Counted from the first letter of the stretch, positions 15,307 to 29,492 are shown. The stretch is DNA of 64,000 nucleotides from Planctomycetota bacterium (GCA_039190745.1 JBCCXZ010000004.1:1-64000), one strand, 5' to 3'. Notes: generated by a model not told the origin, from the letters alone. A program made the numbers and translations.

Positions 15307-16392
15307 TCAATCGATCGGTTCCAGGATCCGCCCGTCGATCCGGTCGCCCAGCAGCCAGAAGACCTCCGTCGACAAGTCTTCGGTCAGAAAATGGACCGAC
15401 CCGTCCACAAAAGCAAAGAACGCCCCGCCCTGGTGCCAGCTGAACGCGCAGTCGTCGGCCGACCCGCCGCTCGGGAGCTGGCTGATAGTGAACTCGTCCA
15501 AGGGGAATCTGGCCACCCCCCCGATGTTACAGTTGATCGGTTTCTCGGTCTTGAACAGCGTGCTGCCGTCTTCGCCCACCGCACCGGCCCAAATCGGGTA
15601 GTTGTCCAACGTCGTGAAGTACGACGCCTCGCCCACAGCGATCGTGTTGCTAAGGCCATCGCTCACGTCCTTCACGCGGATTTTCTCAATTGGGTCTTTC
15701 TGTACAGTGTCGAGCGTGCCGTCGCCGTCGATGTCGATGAAAAAGCAACTAAACTCACCCAATGCCTCGGCGGTCCGCAGGAACATGCCGCGGTCGCACG
15801 GTCCGCGTGAGCCCTTGTAGTGGGACGTACCCATACCTTCTTTCTCGTAAGGCCCTCCGGCCACACCGATGTACGCCCCGTCCACCCGCTCGGGCAATCC
15901 GGTCGATGGACACAGAAATGTTGAAATCACCGTGTCAGTACCCGGAACTAAAGGAGGCGTAAAGCTTCCCGTCCATGCGCTGAAAAAGAACCCCGTTGCA
16001 AACGGGTCGGTACTGTTGGCGATCTTCCAAGGGTTGCCCTCAAACCCAGGAACGCTGTTGTTCACCAGCAAGTCGTACGAGGCCTGCTGATCGAGATTCG
16101 GCAGGATCCGGCTCGCCCAACCAAGCCCGTCCTCGTCGGCAAACGACTTCTTGATCGCTCCCGAGTACAGCCCCCGCGGGAACTCCCGGTAAGCCGACTC
16201 GTAAGCCAACAACGCCAGGCCGATCTGCTTCAGGTTGTTGGCACAAGAAATCCGCCGGGCCGACTCCCGCGCCGACTGGATCGCCGGCAACAGCAAAGCC
16301 ACCAAGACGCCGATGATTGCGATCACGACCAGCAACTCAACAAGCGTGAAGGCGCGTCGGCTGCAAAGCTTCTTGGTCGGTGGCAACTGCAT
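15307..16392 (-). CDS. DUF1559 prepilin-type protein with H-X9-DG C-terminus
   Basis: [40 protein letters not shown]. Start ATG 16392. Confidence 0.93.
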
Positions 16393-16472
16393 ACTTGTTT
16401 GAGCTTCCTGTTGGGGGTGGCGAACAACCAAGAGCGAGCAACTTAATCTGCTGACAGCGGCGTCGACAACCG

Positions 16473-16511
16473 CTTCACACAATCCTTGCTCGATCTTCAC
16501 GAACGTTTCAC
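16473..16511. promoter_or_regulatory. Candidate PhoB/OmpR-family direct-repeat box
   Basis: CTTCAC (16473), CTTCAC (16495) and TTTCAC (16506) on an 11-bp register in a divergent intergenic region. Confidence 0.4.
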
Positions 16512-16793
16512 ATCTCACCCGTTTCCAGATGTTCCGCTCGCAGAGACAATTGCCGCAACGGTGCTCCTAAAGAGATACCAGTGACCGGTACCTAGTCGCG
16601 CTCTCTCCTCCCGAAGAAGGACTGCTCGAAGCCGACAGATCCGCAAGGCAGAGCAGCAAACACCAAGCGCTAAACCGGCCGCCGCTTCGGCCGTACAACA
16701 ATCCTGTCGTCGCCCCAAGCCGATGCCGCCCCGAGCAGCGACGGCCCAAGGCGATCCATCCACGACGCCGCCCACCAGAAGGATCTCCACACG

Positions 16794-18590: not shown

Positions 18591-19328
18591 CTACCGACGC
18601 CGACGGGCGAGGGCGGCGAGGCCCAGGCCGATCAGAGCCAGCGAGGCGGGCTCGGGCACCACGGTGCCGGGCGAGCCGATCGAGTGGCCGGCAGCGTCGT
18701 CGCCGGCGAGCCCGTTGCTCTCGTAGGCGCCGAGCTGACCGACCACCGCGAGACGGGCCGGGGCTTCGATGATGTTGCCCGGAGCGGTCAGGAAGTCGCC
18801 GTTGAGCTCCGCGACGTAAGTCTCGTTCAGGCCGCCGGTCGGGTAGATGGCGCCGTCGATGATTTCAGAAGTGAGCAGGTTGCCGTCGAACAGCGTCACG
18901 GCGTCGCTGCCGCTGCCCAGCCCAGAACCGTCACTGATATAACCGATCTGCACGCCCGCAAGGTTGCCGTTGGGCGCGCCCCACTGCGTGACGAAATCGT
19001 CAATCGCATCTTGAGCAGTAGCCCAATCGTCCTCCCAAGAAACGAGCACAACCACCGACTCACCGGGGGCAATCGTGTCGATGCCGATCAGCGGGTCGTT
19101 CTTCGTCGGATCAAACGAATCGTCGTCGTAGTACACATTCCCGTCCAAGCCGGTCGCCGCGCCCGAGCCAAAGTTGGTCACCTCGAACCAGTCGGAAGTG
19201 GCGTCCGGGCCGCTCACGCCCGACCACAGCTCGGTAATCTTGAGATCAGCAGCCGAAAGGTCGAGCTGGGCGTTGGCCGAACCGGCCGCGCACAGCGACA
19301 AAGCGATTGCGCAGAGCGTCTTCTTCAT
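18591..19328 (-). CDS. Lamin-tail-domain PEP-CTERM protein
   Basis: Signal peptide; LKITELWSG...DWFEVTNFG..IAPGESVV; VPEP-TM-RRRR. Confidence 0.85.
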   Translation of the reverse strand: MKKTLCAIALSLCAAGSANAQLDLSAADLKITELWSGVSGPDATSDWFEVTNFGSGAATGLDGNVYYDDDSFDPTKNDPLIGIDTIAPGESVVVLVSWEDDWATAQDAIDDFVTQWGAPNGNLAGVQIGYISDGSGLGSGSDAVTLFDGNLLTSEIIDGAIYPTGGLNETYVAELNGDFLTAPGNIIEAPARLAVVGQLGAYESNGLAGDDAAGHSIGSPGTVVPEPASLALIGLGLAALARRRR

Positions 19329-19904: not shown

Positions 19905-22139
19905 TCAAAGCGGCCGCCGCCCGGCCCGGTACGCCTCCAGCCTCGAGCGGAGCTGCTCGACCGTCGCCTCCGGGGCCCGGCCCTCGGCCGCCTTCACAGC
20001 GGCCTCCATCGTCGCCGAAGCCGACTCGAAATCCCCCGCAGCCGCTTGGCACATCGCCAGCGTGTCGACCACGCCCAGGTTCGCCCCGCCCGTCTGCCGC
20101 ACCGCCAACTCCGCCGCCGCCAACGCCTCCGCCGCCTGCGCCGCGGTGGGCTCCGGCAACGAAGCCAGCGTCCGGGCCAACCCGTTCAACGCCGCCAGAT
20201 ACTCCGGATCGAGCCGCACCGCTTCGCGGAACTGCTCGCACGCCGCCCCGGCATCGCCGTTCTTCGCCAACGCCAACCCCAGGTTGTACCGCCACACCGG
20301 CCGCTCCGAATCAACCGCAACCGCAGAGCGGTACGCTTCGACCGCCCGCCCCGCGTCGCCCGAAACCAAGTAGGCATTCCCCAAGTTGTACGCCGCCTCT
20401 GCTGACTCCGGCCGCAACCGGGCCGCGGCCTCCAAGTGCTCCACCGCCTCAGCGGCCCGCCCCTCCTTCAGCAGCAGCCCGCCCAAGTTGTACCTCGCAT
20501 CAAACAAGCCCGGCGCCGCCTCAATGGCCGCCTCGTACGCCGCCCGGGCGCCCGCCGCGTCCCCCAACTCGCTGAGCACGTACCCCAGGTTGAAAGACGC
20601 CTCCGCATGATCCGGCGCCGCCACAGCCGCATCTCGATAGTGCACCGCCGCCTCCGCAAGCCGGCCGCTGCCCTCCAAAGCCACACCCAGGTTGAAATGC
20701 GCTTTCGAGTACCCGGGACGCAGCACCAACGCCTGCTCCAACGCGGCGACCGCCTCGCTCTCCTGCCCCGCGTCTGCCAACCTCACGCCCAGATTGAGCT
20801 GCGAGCCGGCCAGCTTGATCCTCGCATCCGAATCCTCAGGCAGCTCCTCGATCTGGAACCGAGTCACCAACCCGTTCAGGTAAGCAGACCCCAGCTCCGC
20901 GCGACCCGCGTTGATCAACTCGTTGGTAATCGAGAGCTCGCTCAACGGACCGGCGGTCGGCCGCTCCACCCAGAAACCCGGGAACGGCTGCGCCGCCAGG
21001 AAGACTTCTTCGTCGTCGACGGACAGCAGGGCCGCGTCGGACAGCAGCGTTTTCAACTCGGTCGCCCCCTTGTAGACCGCCGCCAGCCGGCCGCGGCCGT
21101 CGATCAAGAAAGAGGTCGGCACCGGCATAGGCCCCTTGTTATCCAGGAGCCCTCGGAGCACAAGGTTCAGGTCCGTTACCAACGCATCCCCAGCGACCCC
21201 AGATCCGAACGGCCACTCCGCCGAGCCCTCCAGCCAAGCCCGGGCCTTCTCGCGCTCTTCCGGCTTGTCGACCGACAGAGCCAGCACATCGATCCCCGCC
21301 TCACGCAGCCGTTCAGCTTCGGTGCTCCACTCCTTCAGCTCTCTCGAGCAAGGGACGCACCAACTCGCCCACAGGTTGACCAGCACCGGCCGCCCCGGCT
21401 CCAACAGCGGCGCCCTGCCGCCGTCAAACCGCTCGTACTGCAGCCCTGGCATCGGCACCCGCCCGGCGAGCCAGATGCGTGCCGCATCGGTCCACGGCTC
21501 CGGGGCCAGCGGCTCCGAACGCAACGCTACGGCCGGACGCCGCGCGAGCGGCTCGGCGCGGCCGGAACCTTCCACAAGCAAGTACCGCCGGCCAGGCCCC
21601 AGACCGTTGAACTCCTCCGCCGGCCCGCCGGGCCAACGCACAACAACTCGATCCGCCGGCTGGTCGCCCAAGCCGAAGTGCACCAGCTTGCTCGACTGCG
21701 CGAGGTACCCCTCACCAGCACGGACCGTGTCGACCTGGAGCGGTCGGTCTCCGCCCTGAGCGTACAACTCGATTCGGGCCCCAATCGCGTCGCGGTTGAC
21801 GGTCGTCCCGCGCAACACCAGCTGGAGCGAACGCCCGCCGTCGGCAGATGTATTCCGCAGAATCCGCAGCCTCGGGGCCGTCCGGTTGGCCGAGACGACA
21901 TCGACCGCGCCGTCGCCGTCCCAGTCCGTGACGCCCAACGCCCGGCCGTCGTCGGGAAAATCAAACCCGGCCACGCTCGAGACGTCGGCGTAAGGGAACG
22001 AGCCTCGATTGAGGTAGCAACAATTCCGCTCTCGGCCGCTGAAAGAACCGCCGGTCTGCAGCAGCTCGAACAACGCCTCCCAGCCCTGCCGGTAAGCGTC
22101 GCCCACACTGTGGGTGTAGTCATTGGGCGATTGCGACAC
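19905..22139 (-). CDS. ASPIC/UnbV, thioredoxin-like (WCVPC) and TPR protein; probably the C-terminal part of a UGA-readthrough protein
   Basis: DWDGDGAVD blade; NRDAIGARI..GEGYLAQSS..HFGLG..VRWPGG; NLWASWCVPC; multiple TPRs. In frame with the upstream ORF. Confidence 0.85.
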   Translation of the reverse strand: MSQSPNDYTHSVGDAYRQGWEALFELLQTGGSFSGRERNCCYLNRGSFPYADVSSVAGFDFPDDGRALGVTDWDGDGAVDVVSANRTAPRLRILRNTSADGGRSLQLVLRGTTVNRDAIGARIELYAQGGDRPLQVDTVRAGEGYLAQSSKLVHFGLGDQPADRVVVRWPGGPAEEFNGLGPGRRYLLVEGSGRAEPLARRPAVALRSEPLAPEPWTDAARIWLAGRVPMPGLQYERFDGGRAPLLEPGRPVLVNLWASWCVPCSRELKEWSTEAERLREAGIDVLALSVDKPEEREKARAWLEGSAEWPFGSGVAGDALVTDLNLVLRGLLDNKGPMPVPTSFLIDGRGRLAAVYKGATELKTLLSDAALLSVDDEEVFLAAQPFPGFWVERPTAGPLSELSITNELINAGRAELGSAYLNGLVTRFQIEELPEDSDARIKLAGSQLNLGVRLADAGQESEAVAALEQALVLRPGYSKAHFNLGVALEGSGRLAEAAVHYRDAAVAAPDHAEASFNLGYVLSELGDAAGARAAYEAAIEAAPGLFDARYNLGGLLLKEGRAAEAVEHLEAAARLRPESAEAAYNLGNAYLVSGDAGRAVEAYRSAVAVDSERPVWRYNLGLALAKNGDAGAACEQFREAVRLDPEYLAALNGLARTLASLPEPTAAQAAEALAAAELAVRQTGGANLGVVDTLAMCQAAAGDFESASATMEAAVKAAEGRAPEATVEQLRSRLEAYRAGRRPL

Positions 22140-22163
22140 GACCTGCCGCCAGTAGAAACTTCA
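22133..22163 (-). other. In-frame UGA plus SECIS-like hairpin (candidate selenocysteine recoding site)
   Basis: mRNA UGA-AGUUUCUACUG(11 nt)-GCGGCA-GGUCG-UGUCGC: 6-bp stem with a GGU-containing loop. Confidence 0.6.
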
Positions 22164-24080
22164 CAAGTCACCCGTGTCGGGGTTGGTCGCCATCCCGTTG
22201 GTGACCAGGATGTCCCGCAAGCCGTCGTTGTTGATGTCGGTCTGCAAAGAACTCCAAGCCCAGCGGCCCATCGTGACGCCCGCCTGCTCGCTCACGTCGC
22301 GGAACGTGCCGTCACCCGCGTTCTCGAACAGCGAGTTCCCCCGCGCGTGCCGCTGGAACTCGCTCAGCGTCTGCGCGTCGTCGCCGCCGCGGAAGCGCCG
22401 CTGGAACGCAACCCGATTGCCCGCAGAAGAGAACATGTTGCTGACATAGATATCTATCAGCCCGTCGTTGTTGAAGTCTCCCCAAGAGACGCCCATCCCG
22501 GCCGAAATGTCTTCCACCCCGGCGTCGGGCGCAATGTTGACGAACATGCCGCCGTCGTTCCGGTAGAGACAGTTGCGACCGAAGTCGTTCGCCACGTAGA
22601 GGTCCGGGTCGCCGTCGTTGTCGAAGTCGTCCCAGCTCGCCGCGAGAGTGTAGCGTGTGTTGTCTGCGTCGAGCCCGACTTCGGCGGTCACGTCAATCAG
22701 CTCCCACGAGCCGTCGTTGCGGAGCAGAGAGTTGCGGTGGCCATTGTTCGCGTCGTGATAGGGCACCGGCGCACTCTCGCCGCCGGACGGCGGCGAGTAG
22801 CCGCAGACGTACAGATCGAGATCGCCGTCCAAGTCGTAATCGGCGGCCGCGAGTGTTGTCGCGATGCCAATATGCTGCTTCAACACACTCCGGAACCGCG
22901 TGCCGTCGTTGCCGAAGACCACCAACGTGGAGTTGGTGACCAGCACGAGGTCTTGGTCTCCGTCGTTGTCGAGGTCCAGAAAGAGAGCGCTGCGAGATCG
23001 GTCGAGCACACCCAACCCCGAACTGGCAGTGGCGTCAACGGCGCTGCAGTCTGCTTGCTGCAAGAAGAGCCGGTTAGGGACCCCGCCGGGTTGGCAGAGG
23101 TAAATGTCGTCCAGCCCATCGCCGTTCGCGTCGCCCAGTGCCATACCCTGGTGCCCAAAAACGTCGATCCCTAGCGACTTCTGCAATCGAGACCGCCAGT
23201 AGTTGGTGCCCTTCATCACCTGAGCTTGAAACGACTCGTTGCCGCAAAGCACGGCGGCCGTCACATCCTCGAACAGCGGTCGGCCGCTCGCAGGCCCGAC
23301 CGCTTCACGGAAATCGCGTGCCGTGATCGAAGCCAGCCGGAGCTCTGGGCGGCCCCGCATATCGGGGGACGGTGTCAAATCCCACCGGCACGTCCACGTT
23401 GCGTTTTGCTGAACGATCGGCCCGTCGTCGTTGGCGCCCGCGGCGGCGTCGGCCTGGAAGTAGGCCTCAGTCTCGCAAGAGTCTCCATCCAGCCGCACGC
23501 GGATAACCTTGAACTTGTAGTGCACGCGGCGACTGCCCGCGAACGGCTCGGCCAAACCGGCTATGGCTTGGGCCAAGGCTTCCAGCCCCACAGACGCGGC
23601 TGGAGACGCATCGGCCTCAGCATCAACCAACACCTCGATCGATTCATCTGCAAAACCGTTTTTCAACTCGATCGGTCGGAGCGGTGAGACCGCAACACTA
23701 ACCAAAGCAAGGTCTGACAGAACGTTGTCATTGATTGCCTCCGGTGCGCTGAGCAGTTCACCGAGCTTCTTGAGTTGCTTTCCGGCAACGTCGTTAATGA
23801 CTTCCGTATCCCAGCCATCGAGAGACGGGTCTTTGCGGTCGAGCACTCGGCTCAGAGAGTCGCGGACCGGCTTGCTCTCGGTTGCGATCTGCCGGGAGAC
23901 ACCAGCCTCTCGTTGCCGACTCGAACTCCCTTCCGCTTCGGGAGTCGAGCGGGTGCTTGAGCCCGGATTGGCGGACGGACCGGCGCCCAGGCCGCCAAGT
24001 TCTTCGTTGGGCCGATCGCAGCCGATCCATGACGCTGTTGAGAACAGCAGCACTGAACACCAGAATTTACAAGGTGGCAT
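22161..24080 (-). CDS. FG-GAP/VCBS-repeat (CRTAC1-like) lipoprotein; probably the N-terminal part of a UGA-readthrough protein
   Basis: Lipobox-like WIGC; six DxDxDG blades (GDANGDGLDD, DLDNDGDQD, DYDLDGDLD, DFDNDGDPD, GDFNNDGLID, DINNDGLRD); ends DTGDL-TGA. Confidence 0.88.
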   Translation of the reverse strand: MPPCKFWCSVLLFSTASWIGCDRPNEELGGLGAGPSANPGSSTRSTPEAEGSSSRQREAGVSRQIATESKPVRDSLSRVLDRKDPSLDGWDTEVINDVAGKQLKKLGELLSAPEAINDNVLSDLALVSVAVSPLRPIELKNGFADESIEVLVDAEADASPAASVGLEALAQAIAGLAEPFAGSRRVHYKFKVIRVRLDGDSCETEAYFQADAAAGANDDGPIVQQNATWTCRWDLTPSPDMRGRPELRLASITARDFREAVGPASGRPLFEDVTAAVLCGNESFQAQVMKGTNYWRSRLQKSLGIDVFGHQGMALGDANGDGLDDIYLCQPGGVPNRLFLQQADCSAVDATASSGLGVLDRSRSALFLDLDNDGDQDLVLVTNSTLVVFGNDGTRFRSVLKQHIGIATTLAAADYDLDGDLDLYVCGYSPPSGGESAPVPYHDANNGHRNSLLRNDGSWELIDVTAEVGLDADNTRYTLAASWDDFDNDGDPDLYVANDFGRNCLYRNDGGMFVNIAPDAGVEDISAGMGVSWGDFNNDGLIDIYVSNMFSSAGNRVAFQRRFRGGDDAQTLSEFQRHARGNSLFENAGDGTFRDVSEQAGVTMGRWAWSSLQTDINNDGLRDILVTNGMATNPDTGDL

Positions 24081-24606
24081 GGATCAGAGCCGACGCGGGA
24101 AGAGCAGTCTAGAAGGGACGGCGGGCCGAGCCGAGGAGCAGTCGGTGCGACCGTCCGTCAACAAGTCCACCTCCTAACTATAGGCGGCTCACTGAAAATG
24201 GTTAGGCCAGCTTGGAAACGACTCCCTTGGATCACAATCCCTAGGGTGTTGCACCCTCAGCTGCCAAGCATGCCGGCAGTCTTTCGTTTTCACACGTCTC
24301 CATCGCTTATCGCTGCTAACGCACCTAGCTTGAGGTCCTCGACAACTTTCGACTCCTGCGGCAAACCGCCATTCGTTCGCCGCAATCCCTTATCTGACAT
24401 TGCTTTACCTTGACCTGCACGCAGATCCAATCCGGCATACTCGCTTTCTTTTTCGGTTTTCGATACCAAACGGAGCAGGAAAGCGCCTTACCTCTAATAG
24501 GCGGGAGCTGGGTGCCGACTCAGGCGTTCGAAAGCCCAGTGTGCGGAAAGGCAGATGTCGCTTGGCGGATCACGAAACGGTGACAGACGGTGCTGATGGC
24601 GATCCG

Positions 24607-25137
24607 ATGAGCGACGCCGAACGCCGAGAGGCGTTTGCGAGGCTGTTTGCCCGTCACGACCGGTGGCTGTTCTCCTACCTTGTGACTCTGCTGGCGAACC
24701 CCGCACACGCGGAAGAGGTATTCCAAGAAGTCTGTGTGGTCTTGTGGAGGGAGTACGAGAAATTTGAGCTCGGCACGGACTTCGTGAAGTGGGTGAGCGT
24801 GATTGCCCACAACCAAGTCCGGAAGTTCCGCAGACAGCAGCACGGCAAGGCGTTTCAGTTCAGCGCCGAAGCGATGGACCAGATCGCCTCCCACGCTAGC
24901 CAACGTGCGGACATGTTCGACTACCGACGCGACGCTTTACAGCGGTGCCTTACGAAGCTCTCCACGTCCGACCGAGAGCTGATTAAGAGTTGTTACGACG
25001 GCGAAAAGAGCACCTTTAAGTCAGTTGCCCACCGGCTGGGCAAGCCAGAGAACACAATTTACAAAGCACTCAACCGGATCCGGCGGATGCTCTACGAGTG
25101 CATCAACCGGACCTTGTCCGCGGAAGGCCTGCATTGA
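24607..25137 (+). CDS. ECF sigma-70 factor (Rhodopirellula/Verrucomicrobium type)
   Basis: HAEEVFQEVCVVLWREYEKFELGTDFVKW and a region 4 HTH. Alternative TTG start at 24562. Confidence 0.92.
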   Translation: MSDAERREAFARLFARHDRWLFSYLVTLLANPAHAEEVFQEVCVVLWREYEKFELGTDFVKWVSVIAHNQVRKFRRQQHGKAFQFSAEAMDQIASHASQRADMFDYRRDALQRCLTKLSTSDRELIKSCYDGEKSTFKSVAHRLGKPENTIYKALNRIRRMLYECINRTLSAEGLH

Positions 25138-26993
25138 ACCCGCCAGTCGACCAAGCCCGTCTGCTCCGTGCGTGCGGCGACCTGTGTAATGGTCTTCTGC
25201 CCGGCGACGAGGCTACGTGGCTGGACGGCGTCATCGCCGCGGACGCCGAAGCGTGCCAGGCGTACGTCGACTACATGACGATGCACGCGACGCTGCACTT
25301 CGGTGATCTGGCTGCGGGCGGCGAGAGCTATTCTGCCTTGACCCCAACTATTTCAGCCCTCGTGGACGCGCCCGCTTCGGCCGACTCCAACAATGCGATG
25401 CTTGGGCTCGGCGGCATCGATCTCGCGGAGACTGAGGTCGGCAGCTCAAAACCGACCCCGCCTCGGAAGCTGAGCTCTTGGTTTGTCGTTGCAGCGTCGC
25501 TCGTTGCTGTGGCCGTCACCGCGAGCCTGCTGACTGCCTTTGCTCTGCAGAGAAACCCCAGACTTATTGCGGCGGTAGACACGAGCCCGAACGAGAACGG
25601 TAGGCCCGCGGTCGCACGAGTGACCGGGACCCAAAACTGCCTGTGGAGCCGGGACGCGATCGCGTTCGGCTACGGCTCGCAACTGCGTGCCGGGCAGCAG
25701 CTCGATCTGGTCGAAGGGCTGGCCGAAATCACGTTCGAAGACGGCGCCACCGTCCTGCTTGAGGGGCCCGCTCGCTTCGTTGTTGAAGACCGGCATGGAG
25801 TCGGGCTCAAGCGAGGCCGATTGGCGGCCGTTGTGCCAAGACGCGCCCGCGGATTCCGGGTCCACACCGACTCGATCGACGTTTACGACGTCGGCACCGA
25901 GTTTGGCATGTTCGCCAGAGAATCCGGGGCCGCTGAGGTGCACGTCTTCAACGGGCTGCTGAAGGCCGAGTTGCTCGACGCGAGCGGGCAGACGCAGCAA
26001 AAAGTCGAACTCAACGCCAGCGAAGCCATCCGAGTCAGCCCCGTTTCCACTACGGTCATGGAGTTCCCGGCCGACGAAGCCGCATTTGTGCGGACGCTCC
26101 TTCCCAAGTCGGGCCCGCAAGACGGGCTGCTTACCTACGAGGGCTTTGACTATCCTTCCGGCCCGCTGTCGGCGCAGAATGGCGGTTTTGGTTGGGCCGG
26201 GCCGTGGTTCAGCATCTCCGAGGCTGAAGAGGGTCTTTCCTCCAACATGGTCGGGATGGGGAGCGTCTCCACCGAGGGACTGGTGCCGAAGGGCAACCAC
26301 GCCGCTCTCACCGGCCAGGCGAACCGTATCCGGCGCTCATTAGCAACCTCTGTCGGCGGCGTGTACGACGTGGCGGGGCTGGTTGAGAACCAGGATGGCG
26401 TCCGGCTGATCGGCCGCGACGGCCAGCAGGTATACCTCAGCTTTGTGCAGCGGGTTTCCGACACCGACAACGGGTTCTACGGTTTCGAACTCCACCGCGG
26501 CGATGGCAACCCCAACCGCGTGCTTTGCATTGGGAACGGCGCCGAAGAGACCGCCTACGGCGTGACTTCGAACTTCAACATCTATGGGTCGCAGAATTTC
26601 CCGGCCTTGGGGCAAGAAAACGACGAAGCAAACCTGTTTGTGGTTAAAATAAGTTTTGGGGTAGGCAACCGCGATCTTGTCTCTGTCTACCGGAACCCCG
26701 AGTCTCTGCGGGACGAGCAGGCCTGTGTTGCCGACGTGCAGCTGAAGGGGAACTTTGCATTCGACCGGATCAGCCTCGCCAATTTCGATGGCGAGAAAAC
26801 GCTGGAATCGGATGAAATACGTGTAGGAACCCACTTCCTAGCGGTCACGGGAAGGTGGGGCAGCGAGCGAGGGAGGCTCATGCGTCGCGTGACGCTGCTG
26901 GAAGACCGCCGACAGCGGGCGGCATTCGGCGTCCATCAACTTGTACTTCTCGATCCGCGCGTGGGCAGCCGCTACGGACCGATCGTTCACTAA
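25134..26993 (+). CDS. FecR-domain anti-sigma factor
   Basis: TTG start overlaps the sigma stop (TTGA); TM helix; GFRVHT..VYDVGTEFG..EVHVFNG; large C-terminal beta domain. Confidence 0.88.
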   Translation: MNPPVDQARLLRACGDLCNGLLPGDEATWLDGVIAADAEACQAYVDYMTMHATLHFGDLAAGGESYSALTPTISALVDAPASADSNNAMLGLGGIDLAETEVGSSKPTPPRKLSSWFVVAASLVAVAVTASLLTAFALQRNPRLIAAVDTSPNENGRPAVARVTGTQNCLWSRDAIAFGYGSQLRAGQQLDLVEGLAEITFEDGATVLLEGPARFVVEDRHGVGLKRGRLAAVVPRRARGFRVHTDSIDVYDVGTEFGMFARESGAAEVHVFNGLLKAELLDASGQTQQKVELNASEAIRVSPVSTTVMEFPADEAAFVRTLLPKSGPQDGLLTYEGFDYPSGPLSAQNGGFGWAGPWFSISEAEEGLSSNMVGMGSVSTEGLVPKGNHAALTGQANRIRRSLATSVGGVYDVAGLVENQDGVRLIGRDGQQVYLSFVQRVSDTDNGFYGFELHRGDGNPNRVLCIGNGAEETAYGVTSNFNIYGSQNFPALGQENDEANLFVVKISFGVGNRDLVSVYRNPESLRDEQACVADVQLKGNFAFDRISLANFDGEKTLESDEIRVGTHFLAVTGRWGSERGRLMRRVTLLEDRRQRAAFGVHQLVLLDPRVGSRYGPIVH

Positions 26994-28083: not shown

Positions 28084-28388
28084 TCAAACGGAGATTGGCT
28101 TAAGGAGATAGTAAGCAGAGGGCAGTCGCGGCACGCGTCCCGCCGGCCGGCACACCACCGACCGGCGGGGCGACCGCGTCGCCCCGAACACAACACAACT
28201 GCAACTGGGCCAAATCTCACCGGCGACCGTCGGCCGGCAGCCTCCCCTACTCGAGGCTGCCGGTCCACGCTTGTCGGACCACTGAATGGTTGACGGACCC
28301 AACGGACTTGGGTGCAACTCGTCTCGACATCGTCACTCGAACACAAGCCCGCAAGCTAGGGCGCTTATCGAAGGAGGGATTCAACCCC

Positions 28389-29492
28389 ATGAAGAATCGT
28401 TCTTGCACATCAGCCCACGCAGCGTGTGCGCGCCGCGGCTTTACGTTGGTCGAACTGCTGGTGGTGATCGCCATCATCGGCGTGCTGGTGGCGTTGCTCC
28501 TGCCCGCTGTGCAGTCGGCACGCGAAGCAGCCCGGCGCATTCAGTGTGCGAACAACCTCAAGAATCTCGGGCTGGCTTGCCTCAATTTCCACGATTCGGC
28601 CAAACACTTCCCCGTGAGCGTTCCGCAGTTTGGCGGAGGAGATCGCAGAGTCGTATGTTTTCCCGGTGGCGGCATCGACAATGAAGATACTGATCTTTAT
28701 GAAGGCACTACAGACGAAGGCCTAAGCGGTCGCGGCTGGCAAGTCGACATCCTCCCACAGATGGAACAACAAGCAGCGGGAGACCGGATCAAGCAAGCGA
28801 TTGAGACGAACAAGAATCGTGCTGGTGGGCGATTCCTTGCGAGGGCCAACAACGGCGTTGGCATGGGTTCAGCCGAGATAAGGGACATCATATCCAACCA
28901 ACTCCTATTCTTGACTTGCCCTTCGGACCCATCGGCTATCCCTTCCGAGGAACAATGGTACTGGGACACCCCGCCGGTCACGGTAGGCACCACCAGCTAC
29001 AAGGGCTCCGTCGGGGACACGTTAATGGACATTGCCTCGGAACCGTGTGGAATTAATGCTGATCCACCTCAATCGATCGAAACCGGATCGCCCGACGTGC
29101 ATGGTTCACTGTCGAACAACGGTCTTTTTCAAAGGTCGAGTGTTTGGGAGCCGATCAACCTCCGCAGAGTTAGCGACGGGGCCAGCAATACCTTCATGAT
29201 CGGCGAGAATGTTGTCTCGTTCGACTACCACTCTGCGGCGTTGTTTGCCGACGGCGACTGGGCCACCTGTGGCATCCCGCTGAACTACATGCCGCCGAGC
29301 TTTACTGTCACCGAGCTCAAAGACCCTAACTTCACGAATAGCGTTCGCGGCTTTAAGAGTCTGCACCCAGGCGGAGCCCAGTTTGTCATGGCCGACGGTT
29401 CGGTCCACTTTGTCCAGGAGGACATCGATACTTTCACTTATCGGGCGCTCTCTACCCGCGACGGGTTTGAGGTCGTCTCTTTGACCGATTAG
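28389..29492 (+). CDS. DUF1559 prepilin-type protein with H-X9-DG C-terminus
   Basis: [50 protein letters not shown]. Confidence 0.93.
   Translation: MKNRSCTSAHAACARRGFTLVELLVVIAIIGVLVALLLPAVQSAREAARRIQCANNLKNLGLACLNFHDSAKHFPVSVPQFGGGDRRVVCFPGGGIDNEDTDLYEGTTDEGLSGRGWQVDILPQMEQQAAGDRIKQAIETNKNRAGGRFLARANNGVGMGSAEIRDIISNQLLFLTCPSDPSAIPSEEQWYWDTPPVTVGTTSYKGSVGDTLMDIASEPCGINADPPQSIETGSPDVHGSLSNNGLFQRSSVWEPINLRRVSDGASNTFMIGENVVSFDYHSAALFADGDWATCGIPLNYMPPSFTVTELKDPNFTNSVRGFKSLHPGGAQFVMADGSVHFVQEDIDTFTYRALSTRDGFEVVSLTD

Follow-up and report, generated by a model that had tools for sequence, protein, structure and literature searches.

Two open reading frames (ORFs) that share a strand and a frame and are parted by a single TGA may be two genes, one broken gene, or one gene whose stop codon is translated. 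Such a pair lies in a 64,000-nucleotide stretch of DNA from a Planctomycetota bacterium (GCA_039190745.1, JBCCXZ010000004.1:1-64000; hereafter, the window). A first-pass annotation of this DNA had proposed that the pair encodes one exported protein of 1,391 residues, in which the in-frame UGA is decoded as selenocysteine (Sec) with the help of a hairpin resembling a selenocysteine insertion sequence (SECIS). Our comparisons support that proposal. Judging from sequence comparison, UGA codon 640 is very probably decoded as Sec by the ordinary bacterial mechanism, which would make the two ORFs a single gene. Four observations carry this interpretation: the TGA is conserved, the closest uninterrupted relatives have Cys in its place, the hairpin covaries, and the Sec machinery is present in this genome and co-occurs with the TGA-bearing forms of the gene.

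One reading frame interrupted by TGA

The ORF list gives two frames on the minus strand, at 22161..24080 (639 residues, ATG start) and at 19905..22139 (744 residues, GTG start). Both are in one frame and together make 1,391 residues. The whole read-through gene occupies 19905..24080 (minus strand), with 1,391 codons plus a terminal TGA stop (19905-19907). The interrupting TGA (22161..22163, minus strand) is codon 640, and seven sense codons stand between it and the downstream GTG; the minus-strand text here is ...GGT GAC TTG TGA AGT TTC TAC TGG CGG CAG GTC GTG TCG C.... Sequence, ORF list, and translation agree with the first-pass description of two same-frame ORFs split by TGA and seven codons, in coordinates as well as in wording. 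The GTG (22139-22137) consists of the last loop base and the first two bases of the 3′ arm of the hairpin described below, as was meant when this start was said to be buried in the hairpin.

Gene callers had been expected to split such a gene, and they do. In the public protein collection, the two halves stand as separate proteins of 639 residues (or 561 residues) and 744 residues; the 561-residue protein, which has the later GTG start, and the 744-residue protein share one 119,697-bp contig. The NCBI call of the upstream half begins at a GTG 78 codons after the ATG (window 23847-24080, minus strand), and the signal-peptide-like N-terminus is lost.

Conservation of the TGA across homologues

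We examined the 120 best of 7,826 database matches, 112 of which could be aligned at the TGA column. Most of the 120 are uninterrupted, have 1,000 to 1,450 residues, and show the same domain order. The 112 uninterrupted homologues carry Ser (30), Ala (25), Asp (13), Cys (8), Gly (7), Glu (6), or other residues at this column. Cys in place of Sec elsewhere in the family had been named as a check on the Sec reading, and the eight Cys forms are mostly the closest matches, with the context DL[C]SFFWRQVV; the codon at this column in locus L037 is TGC.

A six-frame search of 40 related genomes plus the window's own genome (41 in total) gave 63 matches in 15 genomes, with an in-frame TGA in 48 matches from 12 genomes. 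All 48 have the TGA in the same alignment column, down to 32% identity; they include a divergent group (32 to 42% identity) with the context DLuSNFWRTVVR. A pattern scan that covered one genome per species also gave 592 relatives, of which we kept the best 80 loci; these are the top scorers and not a random sample. Among these 80, the column holds TGA in 58 and a sense codon in 22, and the TGA forms come from Planctomycetota, Verrucomicrobiota (Akkermansiaceae, Roseibacillus), and Acidobacteriota (Holophagales, Thermoanaerobaculia, Bryobacterales). Taken together, more than 100 loci from three phyla have the TGA at this one column, flanked by open frames of ∼1,000 to 1,600 residues. The codon at the interrupted column was always TGA and always in frame, never TAA or TAG (48/48 and 58/58). 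The first-pass annotation had proposed to look for conservation of the TGA across relatives and had listed a TGA peculiar to this strain, or TAA or TAG in homologues, as grounds for rejecting its reading; the conservation was found, and the two adverse patterns were not. The family is real, large, and widely distributed. One relative (G033) has 16 TGA-form copies, several of them in tandem on one contig (C243, C255, C84), and genome G032 has three copies ∼4 kb apart on one strand of contig C76.

The same data bear on the simplest alternative, namely, that the TGA is a nonsense mutation in this strain, a mark of a pseudogene, or a sequencing error. A single base separates TGA from the Cys codons of the closest uninterrupted homologues, and a few copies elsewhere do look degraded. 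Locus L035 (G013:C110:337-1311) has a second in-frame TGA, which replaces the Trp codon four codons past the Sec (uIFFuRQVV) and disrupts the hairpin's first pair as well; decay of this copy or an assembly error is the probable cause. The match at locus L070 (G017:C1:167900-168918) comes in two neighboring pieces that lie in different frames and looks frameshifted. The recurrence of one codon at one column in so many loci with intact frames, however, already contradicts a defect of this strain, an explanation we regard as scarcely credible.

A second alternative is that ribosomes terminate at the UGA and begin again at the GTG seven codons on, so that two proteins are made and the hairpin serves as a coupling or regulatory element. 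The public gene calls do give two proteins, and nearly every copy has a GTG at codon +8 (79/81 in the WRQVV context). Nonetheless, the seven codons from TGA to GTG encode the SFFWRQV peptide that is common to uninterrupted homologues, and a stop that is invariably TGA and in frame is not what termination and restart would lead one to expect. The downstream product would, moreover, consist of exported-type domains without a signal peptide and would begin in mid-propeller. Together with the tracking of TGA forms with selA (see below), these points make a restart very improbable.

A covarying hairpin downstream of the TGA

The UGA is followed by an 11-nucleotide spacer (22160-22150) and then by the 17-nucleotide hairpin GCGGCA-GGUCG-UGUCGC (22133..22149, minus strand), whose 5′ arm lies at 22149-22144, loop (GGUCG) at 22143-22139, and 3′ arm at 22138-22133. 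The distance, length, and GGU-containing loop reported in the first-pass annotation are correct. We assign the hairpin as a SECIS by its geometry and by comparison among homologues. The bSECIS model described in PMC13188914 has a loop of 3 to 9 nucleotides, a stem of 4 to 16 bp, a G in the first two loop positions, and 16 to 37 nucleotides from the UGA to the loop. The hairpin fits this geometry, with a 5-nucleotide loop that starts with GG, a 6-bp stem, and 11 + 6 = 17 nucleotides from UGA to loop. It would be this fdhF-type element, starting 11 nucleotides past the codon, that recruits SelB and tRNA-Sec to decode UGA 640.

Covariation was assessed in 104 distinct 48-nucleotide stretches, in an ungapped alignment that mixes two registers (the divergent subfamily has a 4-nucleotide GGUC loop). 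In this set, 92.6% of cells were paired, versus 16.5 to 67.1% in controls with slid partners, and five of the six pairs change on both sides (12 cells). None of 500 shuffles reached the observed values for four of five measures, and 1 of 500 did so for the remaining one, the number of pairs with changes on both sides. The composition of pair 18-28 illustrates the variation (GU 48, AU 38, GC 8, CG 1, UA 1). The covariation that had been suggested as a further check on the hairpin is therefore present.

Stem pairing could also follow from the protein sequence alone, and the first-pass annotation had allowed that coding constraints on WRQVVS might explain all of it. The codons argue otherwise. 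When the third base of the Arg codon changes, the residue after Val-Val changes with it, between S, P, A, and T. Where the peptide is WRQVV, GTC serves as the first Val codon in 80 of 81 Sec forms and in 4 of 18 non-Sec forms. Complete pairing, with all six pairs, is seen in 53 of 58 Sec forms and in 0 of 22 non-Sec forms coding for that peptide. In the divergent subfamily, the GGUC loop is closed by a different stem (GCGCAC-GGUC-GUGCGC); this hairpin is in the minimum-energy fold of five of the eight sequences folded and in a sixth in weaker form.

Selenocysteine machinery and co-occurrence with TGA forms

Decoding UGA as Sec calls for a dedicated tRNA and a set of sel genes, and a search of the genome for the latter had been suggested as a check. 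The window's genome (G000) comprises 3.89 Mb in 125 contigs and is 95% complete. It has a tRNA-Sec (69.4 bits, above the Rfam cut-off; called SeC(tca) by ARAGORN) and matches to selA (511.5 bits), selB (296.9 bits), and selD (267.6 bits), all above cut-offs. The four genes, selD (on the minus strand), selB, selA, and tRNA-Sec (L001, L009, L013, and L021), form one cluster on contig C29 (17243-22934). The selD match spans 303 positions within a 741-residue open frame, so SelD may be fused to another domain.

Across the 41 genomes, selA was above cut-off in 17, including 11 of the 12 TGA-form genomes. The TGA-form genome without selA (G030) is 72% complete and is the sole carrier of TGA forms among the 24 selA-less genomes. 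No P value is attached to this co-occurrence because related genomes are not independent.

These data also bear on a third alternative, in which the UGA is read through as a standard residue (Trp, Cys, or Arg), by a near-cognate tRNA or under a reassigned code, and no selenium is involved. Read-through of this kind would equally keep the frame open, although nothing specific speaks for it. The gene's own terminator is TGA, which indicates that TGA is a stop in this genome; the TGA forms are almost confined to genomes with selA; and the hairpin matches a bacterial SECIS in position and loop. We consider insertion of a standard residue highly unlikely and Sec the very probable residue at codon 640.

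The genome contains a second copy of the gene, on contig C7, with 1,264 residues when read through, the same architecture, and a canonical LLSSC lipobox. This paralogue keeps the Sec codon, an identical hairpin, the candidate partner Cys discussed below, and the CxxC. UnbV_ASPIC occurs only twice in the genome, both times in TGA forms. No match to FdhA was above cut-off in the whole genome (best, 52.7 bits versus 814.2), though the full Sec machinery is kept, and none of the 18 AhpC-TSA matches in the genome has an internal stop. A crude whole-genome scan looked for TGA codons with open frames on both sides and, downstream, a hairpin with a GGT[CT] loop and a stem of 5 bp or more, and gave 276 candidates; the 20 longest of the 31 long candidates showed no Pfam domain spanning the TGA. 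Such a scan has low power and misses short selenoproteins and those with other loop types, so other selenoproteins are not excluded by it.

Domain architecture and predicted structure

The read-through product would consist, in order, of a signal peptide, an NTF2-like domain, a calcium-type FG-GAP propeller with an UnbV/ASPIC sandwich, a TlpA/ResA-like CxxC domain, and tetratricopeptide repeats (TPRs). The N-terminus, MPPCKFWCSVLLFSTASWIG followed by C (residues 1 to 21, ending in SWIG before the C; 24018..24080, minus strand), may be a signal peptide with a possible lipobox, as read by eye from the translation. The lipoprotein that the first-pass annotation called probable is, on this basis, a candidate.

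We modeled residues 61 to 1100 with AlphaFold2 from 60 aligned sequences (model m206db086dc47; model numbering plus 60 gives protein numbering). The model has a mean predicted local distance difference test score (pLDDT) of 93.3 and a predicted template modeling score (pTM) of 0.94. The N-terminal 230 residues were also folded alone (AlphaFold2 model ma010667d75ac; pLDDT, 88.5). In these, structural alignment with VIA-align found an NTF2-like or SnoaL-like cone domain (approximately residues 87 to 263; 23292..23822, minus strand), with Z of 10 to 13.6 and a root mean square deviation of 2.2 to 3.6 over 107 to 144 aligned residues (model residues 27 to 203). Its matches include LinA, scytalone dehydratase, ketosteroid-isomerase-like proteins, and many other NTF2-like chains. 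The modeled domain appears to belong to the NTF2-like superfamily by fold only, not by function.

The FG-GAP β-propeller, with Dx[DN]xDG calcium-type loops, covers residues ∼305 to 745 (approximate bounds; 21846..23168, minus strand) and is assigned by Pfam, the model, and Foldseek together. Before the TGA, Pfam finds FG-GAP_3 (PF13517; 116.8 bits; 6.2e-34) and FG-GAP (PF01839; residues 609 to 636; 49.8 bits; 3e-13). UnbV_ASPIC follows at residues 765 to 833 (21582..21788, minus strand; PF07593; 59.7 bits; 2.7e-16). Foldseek matched the model to murine CRTAC1 (9etn_A) with an E value of 1.1e-25 and a TMt of 0.72 over 627 columns at 18% identity. In the model, the TGA residue is the first residue of a short helix (580 to 586 in model numbering) inserted before the last propeller blade, which is where the first-pass annotation had placed the break.

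The TlpA/ResA-like thioredoxin-fold domain (residues 895 to 1008; 21057..21398, minus strand) was found by Pfam AhpC-TSA and Redoxin (both 1.2e-09). Foldseek matched this part to ResA (2f9s_A/1st9_A; TMt, 0.83) and also to TlpA (4txv, 4txo, and 1jfu). Its CxxC (C908 and C911; 848/851 in model numbering; 21348-21359, minus strand) caps the thioredoxin-fold helix, at the N-terminus of model helix 849 to 860. The NCBIfam equivalog cut-offs were not reached for TlpA (NF047696; 44.6 versus 230) or for ResA (NF002854; 37.5 versus 170); the likeness to TlpA and ResA is therefore one of domain-level Pfam families and fold, not of equivalogs. TPRs occupy residues ∼1090 to 1361 (19998..20813, minus strand; Pfam TPR_2, 1.8e-27, and other TPR families). 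The CRTAC1-like combination of propeller and ASPIC/UnbV domain with thioredoxin and TPR domains, as originally outlined, is borne out by Pfam and, for the propeller and thioredoxin parts, also by Foldseek.

A proposed role for Sec640

To characterize the residues that accompany Sec, we used a redox-residue alignment of 133 rows, comprising 52 Sec forms, 6 Cys forms, and 75 other forms. The CxxC of the redoxin domain is intact in 50/52 Sec forms, 4/6 Cys forms, and 20/75 other forms. A Cys at position 687 (RNCCYLN; 22020..22022, minus strand), at the start of the next strand, is present in 39/52 Sec forms, 6/6 Cys forms, and 10/75 other forms, and these co-occurrence counts make it the candidate partner of Sec640. 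In a tree built with FastTree, we counted at least 11 changes of the Sec/Cys state.

The co-retention of Cys687 and the CxxC with Sec suggests a built-in redox relay. Sec640 would be a redox-active residue at the N-terminal end of the short helix before the last blade, Cys687 its likely partner in a selenenylsulfide, and the fused TlpA-like CxxC domain the module that re-reduces the Sec640-Cys687 pair. The protein may accordingly act as a self-contained extracytoplasmic selenium-dependent oxidoreductase, and the NTF2-like pocket hints at a small hydrophobic molecule.

Several observations weigh against the reading of UGA 640 as Sec or against the role proposed for it. The column is variable in the wider family, as the 112 uninterrupted homologues demonstrate, so the residue is not essential to the fold or to the function of every member. 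The bSECIS model sets a minimum free energy of −7.5 kcal/mol or lower (PMC13188914), and the bare 17-nucleotide hairpin, at −7.3 kcal/mol (z, −3.12; 1/200 shuffles equally good), falls just short of it, reaching −8.7 kcal/mol with three nucleotides added on each side. In a 45-nucleotide context the hairpin is in the minimum-energy fold, but this fold is no better than those of shuffles (z, 0.42), and in a 60-nucleotide context (z, 0.06) another structure has the lowest energy. Taken by itself, this sequence therefore argues only weakly for a SECIS, and comparison among homologues has to carry the case. RNAalifold, run on the 104 sequences, did not return the hairpin but gave three other pairs at −1.74 kcal/mol; we retain the hairpin because of the pair counts and the slid-partner and shuffle controls. 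The link between Sec and the other redox residues has its own weaknesses. In nine phylogenetically independent pairs, the CxxC differed in the same direction in 4.9, in the other direction in 0.1, and not at all in 4.0 (median P = 0.0625), and the corresponding values for Cys687 were 3.9, 0.2, and 4.9 (median P = 0.125); the differences lean consistently one way, but neither link is significant on independent contrasts. Thirteen of the 52 Sec forms lack Cys687. Finally, forms with His (P0040, P0059, P0079, and P0095) or Tyr (P0015, P0019, and L075) at the Sec column keep the CxxC, and these small clades may use a different chemistry there.

The same residues are open to another interpretation, in which the UGA is still decoded as Sec but Sec640 and Cys687 form a metal- or metalloid-binding site, with the TlpA-like domain keeping the pair reduced. 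TlpA keeps the copper-site cysteines of ScoI and CoxB reduced, and the redoxin matches found here include TlpA in mixed disulfides with ScoI and cytochrome oxidase subunit II (4txo and 4txv). The co-occurrence of Sec and Cys687 would suit a binding site, and several of the bacterial selenoproteins catalogued in Table 1 of PMC13188914 bind metal. On the other hand, the calcium-type Dx[DN]xDG loops of the blades were the only metal-site motif found, and the Sec forms without Cys687 count against a two-residue site as well. Nothing in our data tells a metal-binding Sec/Cys pair apart from a catalytic one. We think metal binding rather unlikely but treat it as a serious alternative to catalysis.

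Returning to the redox role, we tentatively propose, at somewhat less than even confidence, that this protein typifies a large and ignored class of selenoenzymes, with an exported propeller, a complete Sec640-Cys687-CxxC relay, and an NTF2-like substrate pocket, and that this class is the main reason why some planctomycetes keep the Sec machinery. The last part of the proposal stems from the 16 copies in one relative, the lack of an FdhA match above cut-off in the window's genome, and the fact that both of its UnbV_ASPIC genes are Sec forms.

Genomic neighborhood

Directly downstream of the selenoprotein gene, on the same strand, is a gene for a PEP-CTERM protein (window 18591-19328, minus strand). 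Divergent from the selenoprotein gene, an ECF sigma-70 region 2 protein (24400-25137, plus strand) overlaps a FecR-domain protein (25098-26993, plus strand). Two proteins of the DUF1559 + N-terminal-methylation type, typical of planctomycetes, are also nearby (15307-16518, minus strand; 28290-29492, plus strand). These neighbors (PEP-CTERM, ECF sigma with FecR, DUF1559 proteins, and GH30) gave no functional lead.

Prior records and significance

The family has appeared in print before, in Table S9 of Kim et al. 2016 (PMC4807772), which lists four "ASPIC UnbV / FG-GAP" selenoprotein candidates, three in planctomycete P1 and one in P2. Each was annotated as a pair of adjacent genes; bSECISearch scored three of them as SECIS positive, and Gly was the aligned residue of the closest match; the main text of that paper does not discuss the four candidates (PMC4807772). 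In the 2026 catalogue of 119 families, Table 1 has no FG-GAP, UnbV_ASPIC, or CRTAC1 entry, and the main text does not mention FG-GAP, ASPIC, propeller, VCBS, or Planctomyc (PMC13188914). None of the nine new families presented in the deep-Sep paper is this one, and NCBIfam has no selenoprotein model for the propeller part. Literature searches that paired selenoprotein or selenocysteine with FG-GAP, ASPIC, UnbV, CRTAC1, or VCBS returned unrelated papers only. As a selenoprotein family it is thus barely documented and missing from catalogues. A figure of "11 nucleotides" in a mycobacterial preprint was considered as a SECIS spacing and rejected, as it concerns the spacing of selC and selA.

Because gene callers split the family at the Sec codon, domain architectures, protein counts, and selenoproteome sizes are wrong in Planctomycetota, Verrucomicrobiota, and Acidobacteriota wherever it occurs. 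Set against the 2026 catalogue, it would be a selenoprotein on a β-propeller scaffold without UxxC or CxxU, exported, and present in up to 16 copies per genome. Its inclusion would alter estimates of which bacteria are selenium rich, and it opens a testable route to what bacterial CRTAC1/ASPIC-UnbV proteins do.

Comparison with known systems

The closest mechanistic parallel is the Escherichia coli fdhF type of recoding. Shared with it are the in-frame UGA, the short hairpin with a GGU-containing apical loop, the 17 nucleotides from UGA to loop, the selA/selB/selC/selD set, and Cys-bearing homologues. The minimal fdhF element, reportedly defined by Liu et al. in 1998, is said to be a 17-nucleotide stem-loop 11 nucleotides past the UGA, which would be the same minimal geometry as found here. 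The host protein is different: it is an exported multidomain propeller of 1,391 residues, neither a molybdoenzyme nor a small thioredoxin-fold protein, and instead of a UxxC or CxxU motif it has a candidate partner Cys 47 residues away.

The four candidates of Kim et al. 2016 have the same domain content, two-gene annotation, and planctomycete hosts, and by the description in the table their TGA may well correspond to the one studied here. That table gives four gene pairs without alignment, family analysis, or function, unlike the present analysis. The internal TlpA/ResA-like domain has the thioredoxin fold of TlpA and ResA and a CxxC at the N-terminus of the helix, but here it is fused within a larger chain and is not a free membrane-anchored protein. 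With murine CRTAC1 (9etn), the protein shares the FG-GAP calcium-type propeller and UnbV_ASPIC, and to the plan of that 551-residue chain it adds an NTF2-like domain, a TlpA-like CxxC domain, TPRs, and, very probably, a selenocysteine.

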